DNA of 64,000 bases, taken from NCBI GenBank assembly GCA_000004985.1, contig GG738905.1. One strand, given 5' to 3'. Below, in pieces: positions 5,697 to 55,978 of this stretch. Source of the DNA: Naegleria gruberi. Taxonomy: Eukaryota. Under the pieces are notes generated by a model, which was not told where the DNA came from, made no database searches, and saw only the letters and a program-made list of their open reading frames with translations. A program made the position numbers and the translations under genes. The number at the start of each line of letters is the position of its first letter. The first letter of the stretch is position 1.

Positions 5697-5968
5697 TGTA
5701 TGTCAAAATGCCAAAGTCTTCATCTTCTGAATATGATTCAAAGAAAGTTGCCTAATTTTTGAGGGATGAGAATTGATGGATTGAAAGCCTCCATCTCATT
5801 GAGAATGAGCATTGACAATAATAGTGGAATCATTCAATGTCGATTTGAAACTATTTCAAATAAATTTCGAGTTGGAATCTGCTACTTTTTTTAAGTGTTT
5901 GGTGATAAACGTTGGGTCAATTTGTTACTTTCCATTTTGAGGAGTCATGCAGATTTCTTGAATGAAAG
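5697..5968 (+). repeat. repeat A copy 1 (about 270 bp), directly abutting the retroelement's left end
   Basis: about 93% identical to 10149-10418 (aaagtcttcatcttctgaatatgattcaaagaaagttgcc...gatttcttgaatgaaag). Confidence 0.85.
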
Positions 5969-8900
5969 TTGAAGTGAGTACCCCACTCACTAAGGTTTAT
6001 TGTAAACTACACACACCAATAAATATGAAAAATTTTTGTCTGAAAAAATTTCAACACAGCAAGATGTTAAAAGACAAGATTTACGCTCTTATTAAAGAAC
6101 ACTCCAGTGATGTTATGGCTAGTATGCCTCCAAACACCATCAAGATGGTATTGGATCTACTTGGCGAAAACCCTGAAGACAAAGAAAGATGGCTAGAAAT
6201 TGTTGAAGACGCAGGTGGTGCGTTATTCAACAACTTCTCAACAAAAGCAGAGGCCCAGGAATACTTTACCAAAGGTATTAAGAAGTTAGCAAAGAGTGGT
6301 AAAGTTGCTTCCACTAGAAGTAAGACTACCTCTTTGCAAGAGGCAAGCACTCCAAGTAACATGAATAAGACTTCTTCTTCATCTCAAATGGCTACCCCAA
6401 AGGTTTCTAGCGTTAGTCAGGTTAGAGAGTTCGTCCAAAAGAGAAGGATTGAAGAAACAGACGACAAGGAGTGGAAGAGAAGAGGTGTTATTCTTGACCC
6501 AGCTGATTTCCTTGAAAAGCCAGCTACTTGGAATCTCCCAAGTAGACAACAATGGGAAGAGATGAACCGCCAAATCAACATTTTAGTGGTCGGTAAACAG
6601 GTTGAAGAAAAGGTTAAGGAAACGTTTCCGCCATTGAGTACCAATAACCAAGCATTGAAAGCAGAGTACGACACCTTGAAAGAGGTCGCAGGAAGCGTCT
6701 ACGGTGCTGCATTGTTGAACAAGGATGAGTCAGTTGCAGACAAGTTGGAGGGTGCCATTGAATATATCAAGGAGAAAGCGGTACACCTCAAGCTCGTTTC
6801 CTTCGACAAGCATCTTGCGGAGAAGGTTCGTATCATTCGTTCAGATAAGACCTGGAGAGAACAGGCTGACCTTATTAAGGTCGCCTCCAAGTTGATGAAG
6901 GTAGAAAGTGAAGTGATTAAGAATGGAAACTTGCCAGTCATCAATAATATGACTAAAGCTGTTGAAAAGGCAAGAGATACCTATCCTGTAGCTTCCCACT
7001 GTTTCAAATGCGGAGAAGTTGGACACTTGGCAAAGAATTGCAATAAATCCACTTCCAAATACGTCTCGGTAAGTACTATTTTTCGATCCTCCAGATGCGG
7101 CAGAGATACGGGAGAGGAAACAAGCTGTTCACTCCATTTCGAATGCTTGGAAGGAGTGGAAGAGAAGAGGAGCGAAACCTTCGATAATAAGGCTCCTGAA
7201 AGAGGGTGTGAAAGTGCTTCCTTCAACAGGGTTCAAAAGATCAGTGGAGACAGTAAATTCAGCCAAGTTCTCAATAAGGGAACTACAGTGGTTGGAAAGG
7301 GAGATAAATTTGCTAAAGAAGATTGGTGCATTAGAAGCTTGTCAGAATGCGGAAGTAGTGGCCAAGTTCAGATTGGTACCAAAGGGAGAACAGTACAGAT
7401 TGATTGTAGACTTGAGACCCTTAAACAAATATTGCCTCATCCCCAAATTCAAGTACAACACATTGAAGAGATTCTTAGAGTTTATTCCAGAATCTGGAAC
7501 CATGTTCCTATCATCATTCGATTTGAAGTCTGGGTACCACCAGCTAAAAGTCCACAAGGACTCAAGAAAATTTTTTGCTATCAACTATTTTGGACAATTA
7601 TTACAGTTTACTGTGTTGCCCTTTGGCTGGAATGGATCACCATAGAACTTCACTTTGGTAATGAATCAAGCGGTAATTTTGATGGAATCACCACTCATGC
7701 GTCTTTCCAATTATTTGGACGATGTGCAAATAGTGAATGTAGTGGAAGAAACAATAGCCGTACAGAATGTAGAAATATGCAGGGAAGATGCAAACCAGCT
7801 TGGTTTAGTGTTAGAGAGAAGAAAGAGTGTAATGAAACCAATGACAGAATTAGTAGTGTTGGGGTCATGTGTGAATATTATAACGAAGACACTATCAATG
7901 ACAGAGGCTACGATAGTGAAGATTACGAATATGATAAAATCAGTACTCACGCGGATTCATTTAGGCAAAACAGTGTCGGTAAGGAAGATGAGTTCGATAA
8001 GCGGGACAGTGATTGCTTATTTGGAATGTTTTATCCCAGCAAGGGTGATGCTTGCTCCCATATTCGCCTTAATAGCAAAAACAGTAGTGAAGTACGGATG
8101 GAAAGCTTCGGTATTCGTAAGGGATGTCAGGGTCATTCACAACCTTCAATGGATTATTGCAAATATAAGGATGTGGAATGGAAAACACTTCCAGAGGCCA
8201 TCATTGGTCTATTACTTCTGGACAGATGCATCAGATTGGGGTTGGGGAGCATATTTCGAGGAGAAGGACTTGAAGATAGGTGGTCAATGGTCGGAACAAG
8301 AAAGAAAACTTCATATCCATATAAGAGAAATGTTAGCGGTGTTAAGAGCTTTGATGGAATGGAAGCATTTGTTCGAAGAGAGAAAGATCATTATTTATGT
8401 GGACAATTGGATTATCTTACACAACATTTTAAAGGGATGGGCAAAAAGCCCACTTATGAGAAGGTTAATTATGAGCTTCTGGAGAATTATATTCAGCCAC
8501 AATATAACTCTATTGTCTGTGGAATGGTTACCGTCGGAAGAGAATTATATGGCAGACGGGATCAGCAGGGGGATAATGAACGATCCCACGGATTGGGAGA
8601 TGACTATTCCAGCATTTCAAAGGATTCAGAAGGAACTTCTAGTGGAAATAGGATTCGACAGATTCGCTTCCCACGTAAGCTTCAAAGTCAAGCCTTACAT
8701 GGTAAGAGAAAGAAATTTCAGAGGAGAGAAAGCAGACGCCTTCTCTACATTATGGACAGAAGAGGTTGTAAATTTGTGTTGCGTCCCATTCAACTTAATA
8801 GGAAGAGTATTGAAACATTGCGAAGAATCAAAAGCTATAATGGTGTTGATTCATCCAGTATGGAAGAGAAGGTTTTGGTGGCCAATTCTAGAAAAGTATC

Positions 8901-9927
8901 GTATAAGGAGTGTATCGATGAATGGAAAGGACTTCTTTACAAAGTCCAATACAGGTCACGTAGAACCTTGCAAGAAATCTTGGCTATTAGAGGCAAGTCT
9001 GATAGATTGTCGAACTCGGAACTAATTAGAATTGCCAAGGAGGTCATTAGCTCTCACAGATACAAAGAGAGCACTGACAAGAACTACAGAAGATATTGGG
9101 TGCGCTTTATTAGATTTAACATTGAAAGAAAGGCTTGTTTTCCTCCTTCAGAAGATAATCTTATTGCTTTCCTGACGAACATGTTCCTTAAAACACCGTC
9201 AGGAAGCAACTGCAGTGCAGCATATGCTGCTATCATGGCATTTGCCAAGAAATTTAGTTTAGATCAGGGAATGCGAGGAGATAATATTCGAGAAGTTTTA
9301 AATGGAATGACTAATCTTTCAAGAGTGGCTAGTGAGAAGGAAAGAAATGCTTGGCAACTAGAATTTATTAGAAAGTGGGTGAGCATAGGTAGGAGAAGCG
9401 TGTCTGACAGAGAATTTGTATTATACACATCTATGATGATCATAGGTCTACGAACTATGTTGAGAGGAAGTGAACTTGGTGAACTAAAGACCGAAGATGT
9501 TCAATTTCTTCGCTTGGAGAATGGTAAAATGGCAGTCAAATTGAAATGTAGAAGAGTTAAATCTAGTCAGGGTAGAATGGGTAGAATTATGTGTATAGAG
9601 AGTACAGGAAATGATTTGTGCCCAGTATCTTGGTTGAATAGGTGGATGGTGTATAGAGATCAAGGTGATTACTTATTTGGTAATAGTAAGGCTTTGACTA
9701 CAATCGACATTTCGTGGATACTGAGATTTGTGGCGTCAGTTATTGGAGTAGATGGATGTTTCTCCTCTCATTCTTTAAGAATTGGAGGTGCTAATGAAGC
9801 AGCTCAAGCAGGTTTTTCTCTCGCTGCTATTCAAGCTTTAGGCAACTGGTCTTCAAATGCGGTTGACAAATATTTCAGATCTGAGTTTTTCTATAGTAGA
9901 AACGTATCAAAAGAATTGGGTTTCTAG
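5962..9927 (+). CDS. element frame-1 ORF: Gag-like N-terminus with CCHC zinc knuckle and tyrosine recombinase C-terminus; the middle 1.9 kb of this frame overlaps the RT/RH frame
   Basis: Zinc knuckle CFKCGEVGHLAKNC. C-terminal recombinase motifs RGSELGELKTEDV ... HSLRIGGANEAAQAGFSLAAIQALGNWSSNAVDKYF (R..HxLR..GNW..Y). Confidence 0.7.
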   Translation: MKVEVSTPLTKVYCKLHTPINMKNFCLKKFQHSKMLKDKIYALIKEHSSDVMASMPPNTIKMVLDLLGENPEDKERWLEIVEDAGGALFNNFSTKAEAQEYFTKGIKKLAKSGKVASTRSKTTSLQEASTPSNMNKTSSSSQMATPKVSSVSQVREFVQKRRIEETDDKEWKRRGVILDPADFLEKPATWNLPSRQQWEEMNRQINILVVGKQVEEKVKETFPPLSTNNQALKAEYDTLKEVAGSVYGAALLNKDESVADKLEGAIEYIKEKAVHLKLVSFDKHLAEKVRIIRSDKTWREQADLIKVASKLMKVESEVIKNGNLPVINNMTKAVEKARDTYPVASHCFKCGEVGHLAKNCNKSTSKYVSVSTIFRSSRCGRDTGEETSCSLHFECLEGVEEKRSETFDNKAPERGCESASFNRVQKISGDSKFSQVLNKGTTVVGKGDKFAKEDWCIRSLSECGSSGQVQIGTKGRTVQIDCRLETLKQILPHPQIQVQHIEEILRVYSRIWNHVPIIIRFEVWVPPAKSPQGLKKIFCYQLFWTIITVYCVALWLEWITIELHFGNESSGNFDGITTHASFQLFGRCANSECSGRNNSRTECRNMQGRCKPAWFSVREKKECNETNDRISSVGVMCEYYNEDTINDRGYDSEDYEYDKISTHADSFRQNSVGKEDEFDKRDSDCLFGMFYPSKGDACSHIRLNSKNSSEVRMESFGIRKGCQGHSQPSMDYCKYKDVEWKTLPEAIIGLLLLDRCIRLGLGSIFRGEGLEDRWSMVGTRKKTSYPYKRNVSGVKSFDGMEAFVRREKDHYLCGQLDYLTQHFKGMGKKPTYEKVNYELLENYIQPQYNSIVCGMVTVGRELYGRRDQQGDNERSHGLGDDYSSISKDSEGTSSGNRIRQIRFPRKLQSQALHGKRKKFQRRESRRLLYIMDRRGCKFVLRPIQLNRKSIETLRRIKSYNGVDSSSMEEKVLVANSRKVSYKECIDEWKGLLYKVQYRSRRTLQEILAIRGKSDRLSNSELIRIAKEVISSHRYKESTDKNYRRYWVRFIRFNIERKACFPPSEDNLIAFLTNMFLKTPSGSNCSAAYAAIMAFAKKFSLDQGMRGDNIREVLNGMTNLSRVASEKERNAWQLEFIRKWVSIGRRSVSDREFVLYTSMMIIGLRTMLRGSELGELKTEDVQFLRLENGKMAVKLKCRRVKSSQGRMGRIMCIESTGNDLCPVSWLNRWMVYRDQGDYLFGNSKALTTIDISWILRFVASVIGVDGCFSSHSLRIGGANEAAQAGFSLAAIQALGNWSSNAVDKYFRSEFFYSRNVSKELGF
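5969..6088 (+). repeat. 120-bp terminal direct repeat B1 of the DIRS-like element
   Basis: ttgaagtgagtaccccactcactaaggtttattgtaaactacacacaccaataaatatg...gatttacgctc is identical to 9973-10092. It contains the ATG and first ~40 codons of the element ORF. Confidence 0.9.
7208..9025 (+). CDS. element pol frame: reverse transcriptase + RNase H, interrupted by one in-frame TAG at 7646-7648 (degenerate copy or readthrough)
   Basis: RT motifs LVPKGEQYRLIVDLRPLNKY, FSSFDLKSGYHQ, VLPFGWNGSP and then YLDDVQIV after the stop. RNase H motifs TDASDWGWGAYF ... EKADAFS. Confidence 0.75.
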
Positions 9928-9972
9928 TAGGGGCTCATTGTTTTCGTATTTATTGGTGTGTAGTTGGATAAA

Positions 9973-10092
9973 TTGAAGTGAGTACCCCACTCACTAAGGT
10001 TTATTGTAAACTACACACACCAATAAATATGAAAAATTTTTGTCTGAAAAAATTTCAACACAGCAAGATGTTAAAAGACAAGATTTACGCTC
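9973..10092 (+). repeat. 120-bp direct repeat B2 (right end of the DIRS-like element), followed by the gap
   Basis: identical to 5969-6088; preceded at 9947-9965 by an inverted copy of an internal B segment. Confidence 0.9.
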
Positions 10093-10098
10093 CCACCA

Positions 10099-10148
10099 NN
10101 NNNNNNNNNNNNNNNNNNNNNNNNNNNNNNNNNNNNNNNNNNNNNNNN
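10099..10148. other. assembly gap (50 N)
   Basis: run of N. Confidence 1.
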
Positions 10149-10418
10149 AAAGTCTTCATCTTCTGAATATGATTCAAAGAAAGTTGCCTAATTTATGAGA
10201 ATGGATGAGAATGGATGGATTGAAAGCATTTCATCTCATTGAGAATGAGTATTGACAATAATAGTAGAATCATTCAATGTCGATTTGAAACTATTTCAAA
10301 TAAATTTCGTTATTGCAATCTGCCACATTTTTTAAGTGTTTGGTGACAAATGTTGGTCAGTTTGTTATTTTCCATTTTTGAGGTGTCACGCCGATTTCTT
10401 GAATGAAAGATTTCTCTT
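10149..10418 (+). repeat. repeat A copy 2, followed by unique non-element sequence
   Basis: about 93% identical to 5697-5968; ends at the same ...gaatgaaag boundary. Confidence 0.85.
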
Positions 10419-12292
10419 GTTGAACGTGATTTCCAGATATCAAGCTAAATGAAAATCCAAATGTTGTCGATATTCGTTGAAATTGAAAATTCATGAAGGA
10501 AAGCAACATTTCCATACAATTACAATTTGTTTCTTATCACCACTCGAGATGATCTTGTTTCATGTGATCTTTCGAATGAACTTGTGAAAGATCCTAATTA
10601 CAAAAGTGAAACTGTTCAATAAAAATTACGTTAAATGCAATGTTTTAAAGATGTTGATGAATATTTCATTTACAGTCGTCCTCAAAAGGTAATATACTGT
10701 CGAGTTCACTCATTCCCAATTACGAAAACATTTCTAATAATTCATTCAACATCCAATAGAGAATCTTCAAACTATGAAAACATGATCTCCACAATCTCCC
10801 CATTAAGTCGAATATTCCAAACCAATTAGTACTTTGAATTAAGGGCATTTAACCTATTTGGATGCTTATTTCCCCTTAATTGGACAATTGCACTACGGTA
10901 CTTCCTCAACAGTCCATTGAGATTTTTTAGATAAAATACCCAAAATTCAAGGCACCTTGAAAATAGTTTAAAGGAAGCCATGCATGTGAGATGATGAAGA
11001 AGGCATGTTTGCATGCGAAAGTTATGATGAAATCTAGTCATGTACATGTTGGTGCACATGACAGTATGTGAGAAGATTACATGTCTACTCTTTGATGTTG
11101 TAAGGGCATGTCTGAATGAAAATCCACACATTGGATGGAGATGTATGTGTGATGATAAGAGAGATACTCATCTTGATTAGATCTTTTACTTCTGCAGAGT
11201 TGGAAATAATTAAGAACTGTTTGTCAATAGTACTTACCAAGTTTTTGTTTTCCTTCATGTAATCATGGTGATGTAAATTGACATCATGTTTGTCAAGAAT
11301 GAACATGAATCAAGTGTTTAGCATGGAGTGGTTGTGCGTCACTACTCCATCAACATGTGAAATTATTTCACACCAACAAGAACAAAAGGTAATTTAGCAA
11401 CAAAACACATATATGGCAAAGCACACCCCCATTATCACCAAGCAAACTGTTCTTTCAAGATGTTCCATCACCTCACTTGAATCTCGGTTAGTGGTGCTAC
11501 CATTGAAAGTTGTTGATTTAAATCTTGTCCACCAAAAGATGAGAGGAAGTAGTGCGCACCTCATTGTTGCCTGGTTGGTGATGTTGTTCTTGTTGTTGAA
11601 TTGGTAATAACCAACTCAAACAAACAGCCTCAACAAGAGTGCATTTCATTGCTTTGCAATTTGCTTTCTTTTTTTCTAAAGTGTTGTTCATCATCATATC
11701 GCTTAATATTTATTTTAAGAGAGTAATCAGGTGGTGTGTGATTCTTGGACTAGTAGTGCGCAGAGTGATTATTAGTATTATTATTATTAATTATAATCAA
11801 TTATTTATATCTTTAAAATCATCAACACATCAAATATTTAATAAGGGTTTGAGTTGTTTCCCGCCAAAAATATAATTGACTCTTGAAAGGGGTAGGTACC
11901 TACCTGATCATTTATTTATAATATTATTTAATATTATAATATCTAAGATCTTGCTTCGAAACTCTATCAATTGATTTCTTTTAAATTTTTAAGAACTGTA
12001 GAATCATAAGAATTACCAAATAGAACGGACCAAAGCAAAAGAGAGTAAAATCTGCGATATATCTCAAATCACATCCAATTTAATCTTAAGAATCCGAGAT
12101 TCTATTTTTACGCCAAGTCGCTACAAGTACGGAAGTAAAGAGCCATAGAGTGAAATTTTTTTGCTATTAGATTGTGGACTCCATTGTGTTTTAGTGGTCG
12201 AGTGACAGTTTCAAAGTTATAAGAAACTCTAAAAAATTGAACACATCTCTCACTTTGAGGTTCCATTACTGAGAGAATAGTTTCGAATAATT

Positions 12293-14029
12293 ATGTCGGA
12301 AAGTGACGAATCTTCAAGGGAGGAATTGGCAACGAACAGTGTTTCGAATAGTGCTTCATCTGCTGTTGGTTATCTACATGTGAAAATGCCCCAAACAATT
12401 CTCTCAAAACGACAAAGACCAGGCATAAACTATTCAAATCAGCAACAACACAAAAATCCATCATCAGACCCATCACAATTTAACATTGTAGACGAAACAG
12501 ACAAGACAACACTCGATGTCAATAAGAAACTAAGAAAGAAGCGAAAGAAAAATCTACCTCCATTCCTTTCGAATACATGTCAACAACAAAAATCATCAAC
12601 ACCAAACAGCAGCAACGACAATTTAAATAATGGTAATAATAATGAAGAGGAAATTTTGGATTCAATCGAAGATATCGATCCTTCCATCAAGGTCTATGCA
12701 TTCGAAAAACCACTAATGACAAGCGCTACCAATTTTAAAGATAATTACTTCATACTGACACCTGTCGTGAACAATACTACATCTAGCACATCTAATAATG
12801 CTACTGTTAATTCTACAACTCAACATGTTTCCTCTCCATCAAGAAAATCTCAAAATCAAACTATCTCAACTAATCCGCACCGAAAAAATTCTAGACGAAA
12901 ATGTTCGTCTTCCTCCTCTTCAAACTCTTCCAATAACAATAATACTTCAGCAGCATTACTTTCGAATAATAATCTGTCTAGTACTACTCCACATGTTGTA
13001 AATTCGACAAGTGCTGTACATGTTCATAACGCTAGGAAATCGAGTCAACAACAACAACAAGTATCACATGTGATTATTGAGTATCCACAACAACATCAAC
13101 AACAACAACTTGCAAATCAACAACAGTGTGAATTAGGTGGATATGAGAATGGTAATACGGTGTTCAAGTTTGGTAATTCCTCATCTGTTCGTGAAGTTTC
13201 TGGCATGGATAAATTGACTGAGAATCCCCTTAATGATTTTTTACAACTACAATCCTCGTTGAATAGTAATAATGCGGGTAATAGTGGTGTGTCTTCGGCA
13301 GTTGCCTTGCTAGCATCAGTATTGGCCAATAACCAAGTTTCGAATAATGATTCGAATGGTTCATCTATGGCTTTTGATTACGATTCCATGATATCCATGT
13401 TGGATAAATTGCTTTGCAGGCAACCAAACATGTCATCTTCATCTGGTGCATCTTCATCTGATAACATGTTATACAACATGCACAATAATAACACAACTAG
13501 TCCAACAAGTTTAGTTTCAAATACTAATCCTTCAAATCTATTCATGACAAGTGGCAACAACATGCAACATGGTACCTCCTCCACAACATCCCAAAATCAA
13601 CTCAATAATTTATCCCTTCAACTCATTTCACAAATTGTTGAACTCTTAATTCAACGATATCAACAACAATTACAAAGCGTATTAAGCCAAAATCAAATAT
13701 CGAATTCTTCATCATTGAATAATTCTCCAATTTCCAATCCAACCTCCAATTTTGTACAACATTTATTTAATCAAGATCCTCAAGTTTCGAATATTTCGAC
13801 GAACCTATCTCAATATATAATGAATGCTCGATTTCCATCCAATGATGATTCGAATAATCAATTGCCACAAATGGTAGATCAGCAACAACTGAATCAGACA
13901 TCCATGCAACCAAATAATGTTTCGTCCTCCTCAAACGAAACAATTTCACAACAAGACATTCTAAGGTTTATTCTCCAAAATCAACATCTTCTCTTTCCAA
14001 ATTCGAATAATCAATCAAATAATCAATAA
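12293..14029 (+). CDS. hypothetical N/Q/S-rich low-complexity protein (578 aa) with basic KKLRKKRKK (NLS-like) stretch
   Basis: long ORF from an ATG in good context; strongly biased composition; TTCGAAT motif just upstream. Confidence 0.5.
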   Translation: MSESDESSREELATNSVSNSASSAVGYLHVKMPQTILSKRQRPGINYSNQQQHKNPSSDPSQFNIVDETDKTTLDVNKKLRKKRKKNLPPFLSNTCQQQKSSTPNSSNDNLNNGNNNEEEILDSIEDIDPSIKVYAFEKPLMTSATNFKDNYFILTPVVNNTTSSTSNNATVNSTTQHVSSPSRKSQNQTISTNPHRKNSRRKCSSSSSSNSSNNNNTSAALLSNNNLSSTTPHVVNSTSAVHVHNARKSSQQQQQVSHVIIEYPQQHQQQQLANQQQCELGGYENGNTVFKFGNSSSVREVSGMDKLTENPLNDFLQLQSSLNSNNAGNSGVSSAVALLASVLANNQVSNNDSNGSSMAFDYDSMISMLDKLLCRQPNMSSSSGASSSDNMLYNMHNNNTTSPTSLVSNTNPSNLFMTSGNNMQHGTSSTTSQNQLNNLSLQLISQIVELLIQRYQQQLQSVLSQNQISNSSSLNNSPISNPTSNFVQHLFNQDPQVSNISTNLSQYIMNARFPSNDDSNNQLPQMVDQQQLNQTSMQPNNVSSSSNETISQQDILRFILQNQHLLFPNSNNQSNNQ

Positions 14030-17467: not shown

Positions 17468-17582
17468 TTTTTTAAAGTTGACTTGGTTTGTGATTGATGT
17501 TTAGATTCCATTATTGAAATTACAATAAATTCATTGATAAGCATTAAATTGCTAGTTTAAATTACAAATTTATAGTACACAA

Positions 17583-18663
17583 TTATTGGAATGGTTGTGG
17601 AGGATATCCCATTTGAGGTGGGTAACCCATTTGAGGTGGGTAACCCATTTGAGGTTGTTGAGGGTAACCTTGCATTGGCTGTTGTGGATAGCCTTGCATT
17701 GGTTGTTGAGGATAACCTTGCATTGGTGGTTGTTGTGGATAACCTTGTTGCATTTGAGGGTAACCTTGCATTGGTGGTTGTTGTGGATATTGTTGATAAC
17801 CCATTTGAGGTTGTTGTTGGGGATAACCTTGCATTGGTTGTTGTTGAGGGTAGCCCATTGGTTGTTGAGGATATCCATAACCTTGCACTCCCTGTGGTTG
17901 ATAACCCATTGGTTGTTGTTGTTGTTGTTGTGGATAACCATAACCTTGAACTGGTGGACCTTGATTGAGTGGTTGTGATTGAGTAACTGATTGAGTTGGC
18001 ATGGCTTGTCCAAAATCTTCAGCCAACAATTCCACAGTCAAAGTACCCAACTTGGAATATTGCAATTTGAGATCGACACGTTGTGGTTGTCCCTTATATA
18101 AAGTTCCCAAAGCAACTGTTGCCTTACCAATAATATCATTTCCTCCAAAACGATCATAATCATAAACTTCAAAGACAGCACTTTCACTGGCTGGATTAAC
18201 AGAAGGAGGCAAATCAAAGAACAAGGTTGTGTTCCATGTTGGATTGCAATTTTTGCTGATGTGATCAGTCTTTCTTTGAACGGAACCAATTGTTACTCTA
18301 ACATATGGATCTAAATAGTATTAATTAATTAATATATAATGATGATGATAATGAATGATTATTAATATATATATGAATAATATTTGTTAACCAATCACAA
18401 AATCATTGTTAATGTACAAAACAATATTAAATATATTAAAATCGATTGTACATTGTAGTTGAATAACACAAATAATATAAGAAATATTTCATTGTTATAA
18501 GAAATTCATCATCATGGATGTAACATCACCAAAATTCATCATCATCATCACATGTAAAATTAAATCATCATCAAATTCGCATCATCAACCTACCAGAAGT
18601 ACCACCAACATCCTTTCCTTCCAAATTTCTAGCAGAAATAACAGTAATCTTGAGTTTGCCCAT
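17583..18663 (-). CDS. C2-domain protein, paralog c: join(18663..18594, 18310..17583); C2 followed by a QGYPQQP repeat tail
   Basis: Exon 1 encodes [23 protein letters not shown]. Donor GTAGGT and a 283-bp AT-rich intron. Exon 2 encodes [27 protein letters not shown]...FEVYDYDR...[10 protein letters not shown], then (Q)GYP repeats. Confidence 0.8.
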
Positions 18664-19556: not shown

Positions 19557-20325
19557 TTATTGATATGGTGGATATCCTTGTTGAGGAGGATATTGTTGTG
19601 GTGGATATTGTTGTGGGTATCCTTGTTGTGGTGGAAAACCACCTTGTTGTGGGTATCCTTGTTCAGGAGGATAGCCATATCCTTGCATTGGAGGTTGTCC
19701 ATAGTATGGTTGTTGTGGATATCCTTGTTGTGGTGGATACATTTGTTGTTGAGGGTAACCTTGTTGAGGGTAACCTTGTTGAGGATATCCTTGTTGTTGT
19801 GGTGGAAAACCACCTTGTTGTGGATTAGTTGTGGTTTGAGTAGTAGTTGGTATGGCTTGTCCAAAATCTTCTGCCAACAATTCAACAGATAAGATTCCAT
19901 TCCTTGAGTTGGCCAACCTTAAATCAACTTTTTGAGCGTGTCCTTTGTAAAGTGTTCCCAAAGCAATTGTTGCTCTTCCAATCAAGTCAGAAGATCCCAA
20001 ACGATCATAATCAAAAACTTCAAAAGAAGCTGATTCTGTGGCTGGGTTGACACTTGGTGGCAAATCAAAGAAGAGAGAAGTATTCCAAGTTGGATTAGTA
20101 GTCTTGGTCAAGTGGTCAGTCTTGTGTTTAATTGTTCCAACAGAAACAACAACAAAAGGATCTATTCAGTGTTTAAAATATGATATTATTATTCAGTAGG
20201 ATTATACAGATGTAAGTGTAATGATCAATGAAATTGTTTAAATAGTAACACCTACCTGATGTACCTCCAATATCCTTTCCTTCTAAATCACGTGCAGAAA
20301 TGATGGTTACTTTAAGTTTGCCCAT
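19557..20325 (-). CDS. C2-domain protein, paralog d: join(20325..20256, 20161..19557); C2 followed by a QQGYPQQ repeat tail
   Basis: Exon 1 encodes [23 protein letters not shown]. Donor GTAGGT, acceptor ctgaatag. Exon 2 encodes [27 protein letters not shown]...FEVFDYDR...[10 protein letters not shown]. Confidence 0.8.
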
Positions 20326-55906: not shown

Positions 55907-55978
55907 ATATCAGGGAAGGAGTTGAACCTCCGCCGAATCGTTAACAGCGACTCATGCTTACCACTACACTACCTGAAA
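55907..55978 (-). tRNA. tRNA-Asn (anticodon GUU), 72 nt, no encoded CCA
   Basis: Hand fold of TTTCAGG-TA-GTGT-AGTGGTAA-GCAT-G-AGTCG-CTGTTAA-CGATT-CGGC-GGAGG-TTCAACT-CCTTC-CCTGATA-T. This gives a 7-bp acceptor (one mismatch), D arm with GG, anticodon loop CU-GUU-AA, and T arm GGAGG/CCTTC with TTCAACT loop. Confidence 0.6.

Follow-up and report, generated by a model that had tools for sequence, protein, structure and literature searches.

The window analyzed here is a 64,000-nucleotide stretch of Naegleria gruberi contig GG738905.1 (GenBank assembly GCA_000004985.1), read on one strand from 5' to 3'. Of ten long ORFs from it, seven match annotated N. gruberi proteins exactly, on a scaffold of 290,827 bp. 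The window contains a retrotransposon that spans position 5969 to beyond position 10098, where it enters an assembly gap (Table 1). Pfam domains zf-CCHC, RVT_1, RT_RNaseH, and Phage_integrase were identified in the element, which encodes gag, pol, and a tyrosine recombinase (YR). The terminal repeats are direct: positions 5966 to 6088 and 9970 to 10092 (123 nt) are 99% identical, and the two 120-nt copies starting at 5969 (A1) and 9973 (A2) are identical at 120 of 120 positions. A self-BLAST of the window for other copies of the element recovered none, so that the window holds a single copy.

Table 1. Features of the retrotransposon, its flanks, and the hairpin at the B1/A2 junction (window coordinates)
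Feature	Position	Strand	Basis or remark
Left flank X, outside the element (host/target)	5713-5968	+	Approximately 90% identical to X' (10149-10409)
Repeat A1, left terminal direct repeat	5969-6088	+	Inner hairpin 5973-5991; right-arm copy 5985-6031
gag ORF with CCHC zinc knuckle	6025-7068	+	PF00098, E 1.3e-5; start ATG 6025 or 6064
pol: RT, RNase H, MT-like C-terminal domain	7072-9025	+	RVT_1, RT_RNaseH; +1 frame relative to gag
Tyrosine recombinase (YR)	8752-9927	+	Phage_integrase E 4.8e-10; SAM-like N-terminal domain; invariant R, H-x-x-R, and Y columns
Putative repeat B1, internal copy of the right terminus	9933-9972	+	Conserved block CTCATTGTTTTCG plus the inverted segment; analogy with L005
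Repeat A2, internal direct repeat, identical to A1	9973-10092	+	Repeat comparison
CCCACC, start of a 3' spacer that should lead to B2	10093-10098	+	Resembles the sequence after A2 in L005
Assembly gap, 50 Ns	10099-10148		Follows CCCACC
X', empty-site-like copy of the left flank, outside the element	10149-10409	+	Similarity to X
Hairpin, left arm	9941-9983	+	Folds and pair list; B1/A2 junction between 9972 and 9973
Hairpin, outer stem	9941-9965 x 10009-10035	+	Segment in the initial annotation, 9947-9965
Hairpin, middle stem	9967-9974 x 9998-10005	+	Fold
Hairpin, inner stem	9977-9983 x 9989-9995	+	Fold
Hairpin loop ACCCC, 5 nt	9984-9988	+	Fold
Hairpin, right arm, wholly within repeat A	9989-10035	+	Pair list; AATAAA at 10022-10027

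The left terminus of the element was fixed by comparison of its flanks, since the similarity between X and X' stops exactly between 5968 and 5969. Past the insertion point, where X and X' diverge, X' continues with ATTTCTCTTG. X' looks like an unoccupied copy of the target and may be a paralogue, a second haplotype, or an artefact of scaffolding. We rejected X' as the missing spacer or B2, because it has no B1-like end and its alignment with the left flank reaches the insertion point. The gap hides B2 from view, and the split-repeat status of the element is thus taken from its relatives. The CCCACC motif, which follows A2 here as in a relative from Naegleria lovaniensis (L005), suggests that the element runs into the gap with a spacer and B2, and the layout of L005 suggests by analogy that approximately positions 9933 to 9972 are B1, a direct internal copy of the right terminus. 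A B2 beyond the gap would be expected to match this segment and to end in ...GTTGGATAAA.

The YR is the 3' part of a long frame-1 ORF (5962-9927) that is open from gag through YR, with 1321 amino acids in the window and 1317 in N. lovaniensis (L005 7950-11903), while pol lies in the +1 frame over approximately 2 kb. This long ORF overlap is kept in both Naegleria species, as reported for DIRS1-like elements. A 26-nt GT...AG segment is located at the gag/pol boundary (7069-7094). We rejected it as an intron fusing gag and pol, because its removal does not restore the frame; pol stays out of frame, implying that the passage from gag to pol is a +1 shift. An in-frame TAG (7643-7645) lies within the conserved RT motif GWNGSP(F), and the N. 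gruberi copy is therefore probably not autonomous, despite its identical A1 and A2. Besides, we observed a near-perfect inverted repeat, TTCCTGACG...CGTCAGGAA, at approximately 9168 to 9210 inside the most conserved recombinase motif (FLKTPSGSN); around it, the minus strand of 9121 to 9270 folds with a z score of -4.5.

Searches for relatives with the YR returned only seven homologues (30 to 51% identity), and a pol profile returned three close relatives together with approximately 30 distant ones at 23 to 29% identity, many of which carry Pfam Dam. No relatives were found by YR-profile scans of metagenome and viral collections. The pol of the window is 49% identical to that of L002, a close relative, and its YR is approximately 41% identical to the N. 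lovaniensis YR (measured with a near-identical second copy). A DNA pattern scan with two conserved 3'-UTR blocks gave seven matches; one of them (L013) was rejected as a relative since its contig is bacterial by its ORFs, and the other six, which have no family-like 3' sequence, were judged to be chance matches. L006 and L007 were likewise discarded as comparators for the hairpin described below, being YR-deleted derivatives without A/B repeats, and L003, a YR without RT, was left out of the comparison.

The N. lovaniensis relative L005 is complete and flanked by host genes. Its split direct repeats comprise A1 (7889-8075) and A2 (11947-12133), each of 187 nt, and B1 (11912-11955), which comes right after the YR stop, abuts A2, and equals B2 (12631-12674; 44 nt, 100%). 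B2 lies approximately 500 nt downstream of A2, and the sequence after A2 begins CCCACCCTCC, with the CCCACC motif common to the bases preceding the gap in the window. The spacer (12134-12630) has 136-nt tandem repeats rich in GGATGCCT, and a 17-nt inverted repeat (11847-11863 and 12143-12159, 94% complementary) brackets B1-A2. L001 (9368-10123) is a 5'-truncated second N. lovaniensis copy that retains YR-B1-A2-spacer-B2 with no RT upstream. The distant relatives L008 to L012 all show the order A1, then gag, pol, and YR, then B1A2, spacer, and B2. Thus, all four repeats were seen in six relatives (L005, L008, L009, L010, L011, and L012), with B2 identical to B1 at 97 to 100%.

Gag-pol-YR order, an MT-like domain, and split direct repeats are the features of PAT-like elements (PMC4157794). 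The Pfam Dam model gave no match to the pol even at E<=10; the pol C terminus aligns with the Dam-annotated region of P0024, a more distant relative (28% identity, E 3e-7), and has a putative motif, CVPF. On this scheme, we classify the element as a split-direct-repeat (PAT-like) tyrosine-recombinase retrotransposon of N. gruberi, the MT-like region being assigned by pairwise homology and B2 by analogy with the relatives. Like the PAT- and Ngaro-like split-repeat elements (A1-ORFs-B1A2B2), it has direct A1 and A2 and a probable B1-A2 junction just past the YR stop, and its gene order and putative MT-like domain correspond to those of PAT-like elements; B1 and B2 were seen directly in the N. 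lovaniensis relative and five distant relatives. It differs from them in that A2 and B2 of its family, as seen in the relatives, are set apart by a spacer of approximately 100 to 500 nt. We rejected a Ngaro-like assignment, given the homologue of the MT-like region, the long overlap of the frame-1 ORF and pol, and the Pfam Dam in the nearest distant relatives. An LTR retrotransposon was also rejected: there is no tRNA primer-binding site after A1, because gag coding begins inside repeat A, no rve domain was detected, and the integration enzyme is a tyrosine recombinase. The initial annotation had placed the element in the DIRS family, which holds at the level of the DIRS order (gag, RT/RNase H, and tyrosine recombinase) but not for a DIRS1-like element, as the terminal repeats are direct. 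A survey of DIRS elements in 2011 listed N. gruberi with seven YR-bearing sequences in six families of uncertain status (Piednoel et al. 2011, PMC3266345). On our classification, N. gruberi carries a nearly intact PAT-like element, which would settle that listing. With so few sequences per family, comparing further copies of one element, as the initial annotation proposed, is a weak test in this genome.

A short segment immediately upstream of the right repeat had been reported in the initial annotation as the exact reverse complement of a sequence within both terminal repeats. The 21-mer in question, AACTACACACACCAATAAATA, does occur in two exact copies, at 6005 to 6025 and 10009 to 10029 (0 expected by chance), and the inverted counterpart that directly precedes the right repeat is a real and conserved element of structure. 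The complementarity is not exact, however: positions 9947 to 9965 read TATTTATTGGTGTGTAGTT (19 nt) and lack one GT/CA unit of TATTTATTGGTGTGTGTAGTT, the reverse complement of the 21-mer. Indeed, a minus-strand search for the 21-mer with up to three mismatches gave no match at 9947 to 9965 or elsewhere, and pairing of the 19-mer with the 21-mer leaves a 2-nt CA bulge. The complementarity also reaches further than this segment, from 9941 to 9965 against 10009 to 10035, and equally against 6005 to 6031; this outer pairing covers 25 positions with one G.T opposition and the 2-nt bulge. The feature had been correctly spotted and imprecisely described.

Furthermore, the inverted segment forms no more than the outer tier of a single uninterrupted hairpin of approximately 95 nt (9941-10035). 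In silico folding of the single-stranded region, which the initial annotation had proposed as a check, predicted 39 pairs, of which 35 are Watson-Crick and 4 are G.U. The RNA fold had z scores of -6.2 to -7.7, with 0 of 200 dinucleotide shuffles as stable, and the minus strand folded as DNA had a z score of -5.0. The left arm consists of the last approximately 32 nt of B followed by the first 11 nt of A. Facing it, the part of the right arm from 9989 to 9999 is complementary to the start of A, that is, to the left terminus (nt 1-2 and 5-11), and the part from 10000 to 10035 is complementary to the last approximately 32 nt of B, the right terminus. Since the right arm is inside A, every copy of A has a stretch complementary, in adjoining parts, to both ends of the element. 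Repeat A without B folds into the small inner hairpin only (z -1.6 for A1; also -0.6), implying that full pairing needs B. In A1, the gag ATG at 6025 falls within the right-arm copy. An Rfam scan found no family match at gathering score for the hairpin. The weak alignments, to long miRNA-precursor hairpins (E 0.01-0.7; 17-23 bits versus gathering scores of 73-211), recover the ends 9941 and 10035, and we ruled out a known RNA family, as these are generic hairpin matches and all below gathering score. The sole gathering-score Rfam match within the window is a tRNA gene on the minus strand (55907-55978).

The hairpin is a conserved structural feature of the B1/A2 junction. Among seven related elements, it is present in five (the window element, L005, L009, L010, and L012), mirrored in one (L011), and absent in one (L008); with L009, L010, and L012 being interrelated, the independent lineages that have it number two or three. 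The L005 hairpin (11921-12008) has three tiers and 38 pairs (z -5.5), and its arm sequences are unrelated to those of the window. The junction hairpins of L009, L010, and L012 had z scores of -7.8, -7.0, and -3.0, respectively. The five share a common plan: in the outer stem the end of B pairs with an A-internal part, the inner hairpin is formed by the start of A, and the B/A junction is located at the inner end of the enclosing stem or within approximately 4 nt of it. L011 has a significant local hairpin in a mirror arrangement, with the inner hairpin in B (z -3.0), and no hairpin was obtained on folding the junction of L008, which has the same layout (z approximately 0 to -1.3). The left arm has at its 5' foot the block CTCA(T/A)TGTT(T/A)TCG, which recurs in two close relatives, L002 and L004; both of these contigs end inside the arm, and the right-arm comparison leaves them out.

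In an alignment of L009, L010, and L012, 28 pairs are kept, and 6 of the 28 show compensatory double changes. The window and L005 hairpins, too diverged for MAFFT/RNAalifold, were compared by pair lists from separate folds. Their inner stems, AGTGAGT/ACTCACT in the window and AGTAAAA/TTTTACT in L005, differ by three double changes of the G-C to A-T type. Near the junction, both Naegleria elements have AAA/TT on the left (the slash marking the junction) and GGTTT(A/G)TTGTAA on the right, with the same TT.GG wobble pairs. The B2 end of L001 reads ...ACAACAAA, which places the crossover at approximately AAA/TT, the same relative position as 9972/9973 in the window. The five hairpins together contain 12 G.U pairs and 0 A.C oppositions. 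Allowing for shared ancestry, these reduce to approximately 8 independent cases (p approximately 0.01 under strand-symmetric mutation), a hint that selection acts on plus-strand pairing, RNA being the simplest case. In both Naegleria elements the right arm contains AATAAA (approximately 11991-11996 in L005); the hairpin buries this motif at A2, whereas at A1 it is exposed. The L009, L010, and L012 right arms do not have it. Besides, L009 has a 20-nt, 100% inverted repeat between an A1-internal part and the B2 end, near both ends of the integrated element.

The explanation that we prefer, with confidence and doubt about evenly balanced, is that this is a B1/A2-straddling hairpin of a PAT-like element, whose pairing in trans favors a precise B/A junction. 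On a linear plus-sense intermediate, either RNA or plus-strand DNA, that runs 5' to 3' from A to B, the same pairing would be expected to form in trans. This would bring the B 3' end up against the A 5' end, leaving a nick where the inner hairpin begins, and ends placed in this way would favor a template jump or joining that yields a precise B/A circle junction, which the recombinase could then use for integration. That the same hairpin is kept with different sequence in the relatives makes help in end joining during copying plausible. The absence of the hairpin in L008, its mirrored form in L011, and the stop codon in the RT of the N. gruberi copy count against this explanation, as do the gap over B2, the low number of independent lineages with the hairpin, and the plus-strand bias of its wobble pairs, which departs from the minus-strand cDNA role proposed for the DIRS-1 ICR. 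A role of the inverted segment in circle-junction formation, as suggested in the initial annotation, is a reasonable and plausible reading.

[quoted passage not shown] Similarly, the right arm in A is complementary, side by side, to the beginning of A (left terminus) and to the final part of B (right terminus), a geometry in which both element ends could anneal adjacently on one strand. The N. gruberi stretch differs in being part of a repeat, present in A1 and A2, in its length of approximately 47 nt, of which only approximately 11 nt face the left terminus, and in that its element has no inverted terminal repeats. Thus, the ICR-like part, if anything, is the opposite arm (9989-10035) in repeat A and not the segment noted initially. 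The ICR of DIRS-1 is essential for a step after first-strand synthesis (PMC7192593) and is thought to act on minus-strand cDNA, whereas the G.U bias of the hairpin points to plus-sense RNA. By membership the hairpin is no DIRS1-type ICR; in function, as judged from its pairing, it is plausibly ICR-like.

We also considered, with reservations that make it rather doubtful, a stronger version in which the circle junction is an imperfect palindrome, the family is structurally intermediate between PAT-like and DIRS1-like elements, and the hairpin cyclises the plus-strand RNA template. With a palindromic circle junction, B1-A2 would be both a direct copy and a complementary copy of the joined termini, and an RNA-cyclising hairpin would let the reverse transcriptase make the precise B/A junction. 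An intermediate between the split-direct-repeat and inverted-repeat architectures "is not observed" according to PMC4157794. In the accessible literature, to which the primary Goodwin and Poulter papers do not belong, B1-A2 is treated as a direct copy of the termini, with no junction hairpin or palindrome. The feature may be undescribed, as appears from that literature, and an earlier description in the Goodwin and Poulter papers is possible.

End rebuilding and circularization of tyrosine-recombinase retrotransposons are known experimentally for DIRS-1 alone, where the ICR is essential, and split-direct-repeat elements so far have a paper model only. A conserved hairpin that sets both termini side by side would give the split-repeat model a concrete element that can be mutated. 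If true, a shared palindromic junction would link the architecture of inverted terminal repeats and ICR with that of split direct repeats.

The same pairs could instead serve self-priming, which we regard as unlikely though deserving attention. The 3' region of the RNA would fold back, through B1 and A2 or through the B2 end and the right arm of A2, and the paired 3'-OH would prime minus-strand cDNA; this would follow 3' processing and replace the tRNA primer that DIRS-order elements lack. Consistent with this, no primer-binding site follows A1, gag coding starting inside A, and the G.U bias fits an RNA structure. The AATAAA in the right arm of both Naegleria elements implies that cleavage could fall just 3' of the hairpin, but the L009, L010, and L012 right arms lack this signal. 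In Tf1 of fission yeast, self-priming reportedly involves pairing of the RNA 5' end with a site immediately 3' of the left LTR. The Naegleria hairpin resembles this arrangement in an intramolecular complementarity between repeat-region sequence and a site beside a terminal repeat that could replace a tRNA primer, and differs in that its pairing is at the 3' side and comprises 39 bp. A 3' hairpin has been proposed for DIRS-1 too, whose primer is unknown (PMC7192593). A 39-bp stem, however, far exceeds what priming needs, and self-priming leaves the constant position of the B/A junction at the base of the inner hairpin unexplained.

In general, tyrosine recombinases of the Cre, Flp, and lambda Int families act at a crossover that lies between inverted binding sites. 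The inverted arms might accordingly bind the recombinase as a duplex site, like lox, FRT, or att, around the presumed crossover at the B/A junction. A 7-nt AAATTCG common to both termini of L005 does have an 8-nt inverted pair, TTTACAAC and GTAGTAAA, on its two sides. We nevertheless consider a duplex recombination site improbable. The crossover lies 15 to 25 nt off the center of the palindrome rather than in a central spacer of 6 to 8 bp, 25 to 45 bp separate the arms, and 12 G.U pairs against 0 A.C oppositions are unexpected under selection on duplex DNA symmetry. Besides, the arm sequences differ even between the two Naegleria elements, whose YRs are approximately 41% identical.

We assign the same low likelihood to another role of the RNA, be it occlusion of the poly(A) signal at A2, which would allow read-through to B2, a Gag packaging or dimerization signal, or a Dicer substrate for host silencing. 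Burial of AATAAA at A2 and its exposure at A1 in both Naegleria elements agree with the first of these, and the CCHC knuckle of Gag agrees with the second. The HIV-1 poly(A) hairpin offers a parallel, with AAUAAA in an R-region hairpin and pairing that differs between the 5' and 3' copies. As in HIV-1, the signal here lies within a hairpin of a terminally repeated region; unlike in HIV-1, it is the 3' copy that is occluded, and the signal is missing in the distant hairpin-bearing relatives, which also argues against poly(A) occlusion as such. For a Dicer substrate, long miRNA-precursor hairpins are the sole Rfam entries with similarity, although their 17 to 23 bits fall far short of the gathering scores, and RNAi is known to control DIRS-1 (PMC7192593). 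None of these roles explains the fixed place of the junction in the structure.

That the inverted segment is a genuine DIRS1-type ICR, the likeness drawn in the initial annotation, is very improbable. Its location, after the YR stop and before the right repeat, and its complementarity to terminal-repeat sequence do speak for this reading. DIRS1-like elements, however, have inverted terminal repeats (PMC7192593, PMC3266345), and those in the window are direct. The segment from 9947 to 9965 faces repeat-internal positions, approximately 37 to 63 of 120, instead of the extremity, and it is not complementary to the start of the left terminus. Complementarity to the right terminus would be expected in the right arm inside A (via B1, which equals B2 at 97 to 100% in the relatives), where it would adjoin the part facing the left terminus. 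The complementary stretch of approximately 47 nt is not a unique internal region, since it is inside repeat A and hence occurs twice. The segment itself measures 25 to 32 nt, compared with 85 to 130 nt for the two ICRs summed (PMC3266345). As a positive control, the DIRS1-like element L020 (3763-10503, ENA assembly) has 133-nt inverted terminal repeats (98.5%) and ICR halves of 45 nt (left) and 60 nt (right) which correspond to the two extremities and have a few bases in common. [quoted passage not shown]

A chance inverted repeat from (GT)n/(CA)n and AT-rich low-complexity sequence is hardly credible: the arms do hold GTGTGT/CACACAC and AT-rich runs in a genome of 34.5% GC, but dinucleotide-preserving shuffles never match the observed energy, the same architecture recurs with covariation in relatives, and when both strands of the entire 64,000 nt are folded as sliding 110-nt segments the hairpin ranks second of 12,410, at -43.3 kcal/mol versus a mean of -16.2 (standard deviation, 5.8). 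Energies below that of the hairpin were confined to a low-complexity coding repeat near 17.6 kb. Tandem low-complexity coding repeats, with units like GGTAACCCATTTGAGGT, occupy 17570 to 17890 and 19570 to 19760; they have the lowest folding energies and are unrelated to the element.
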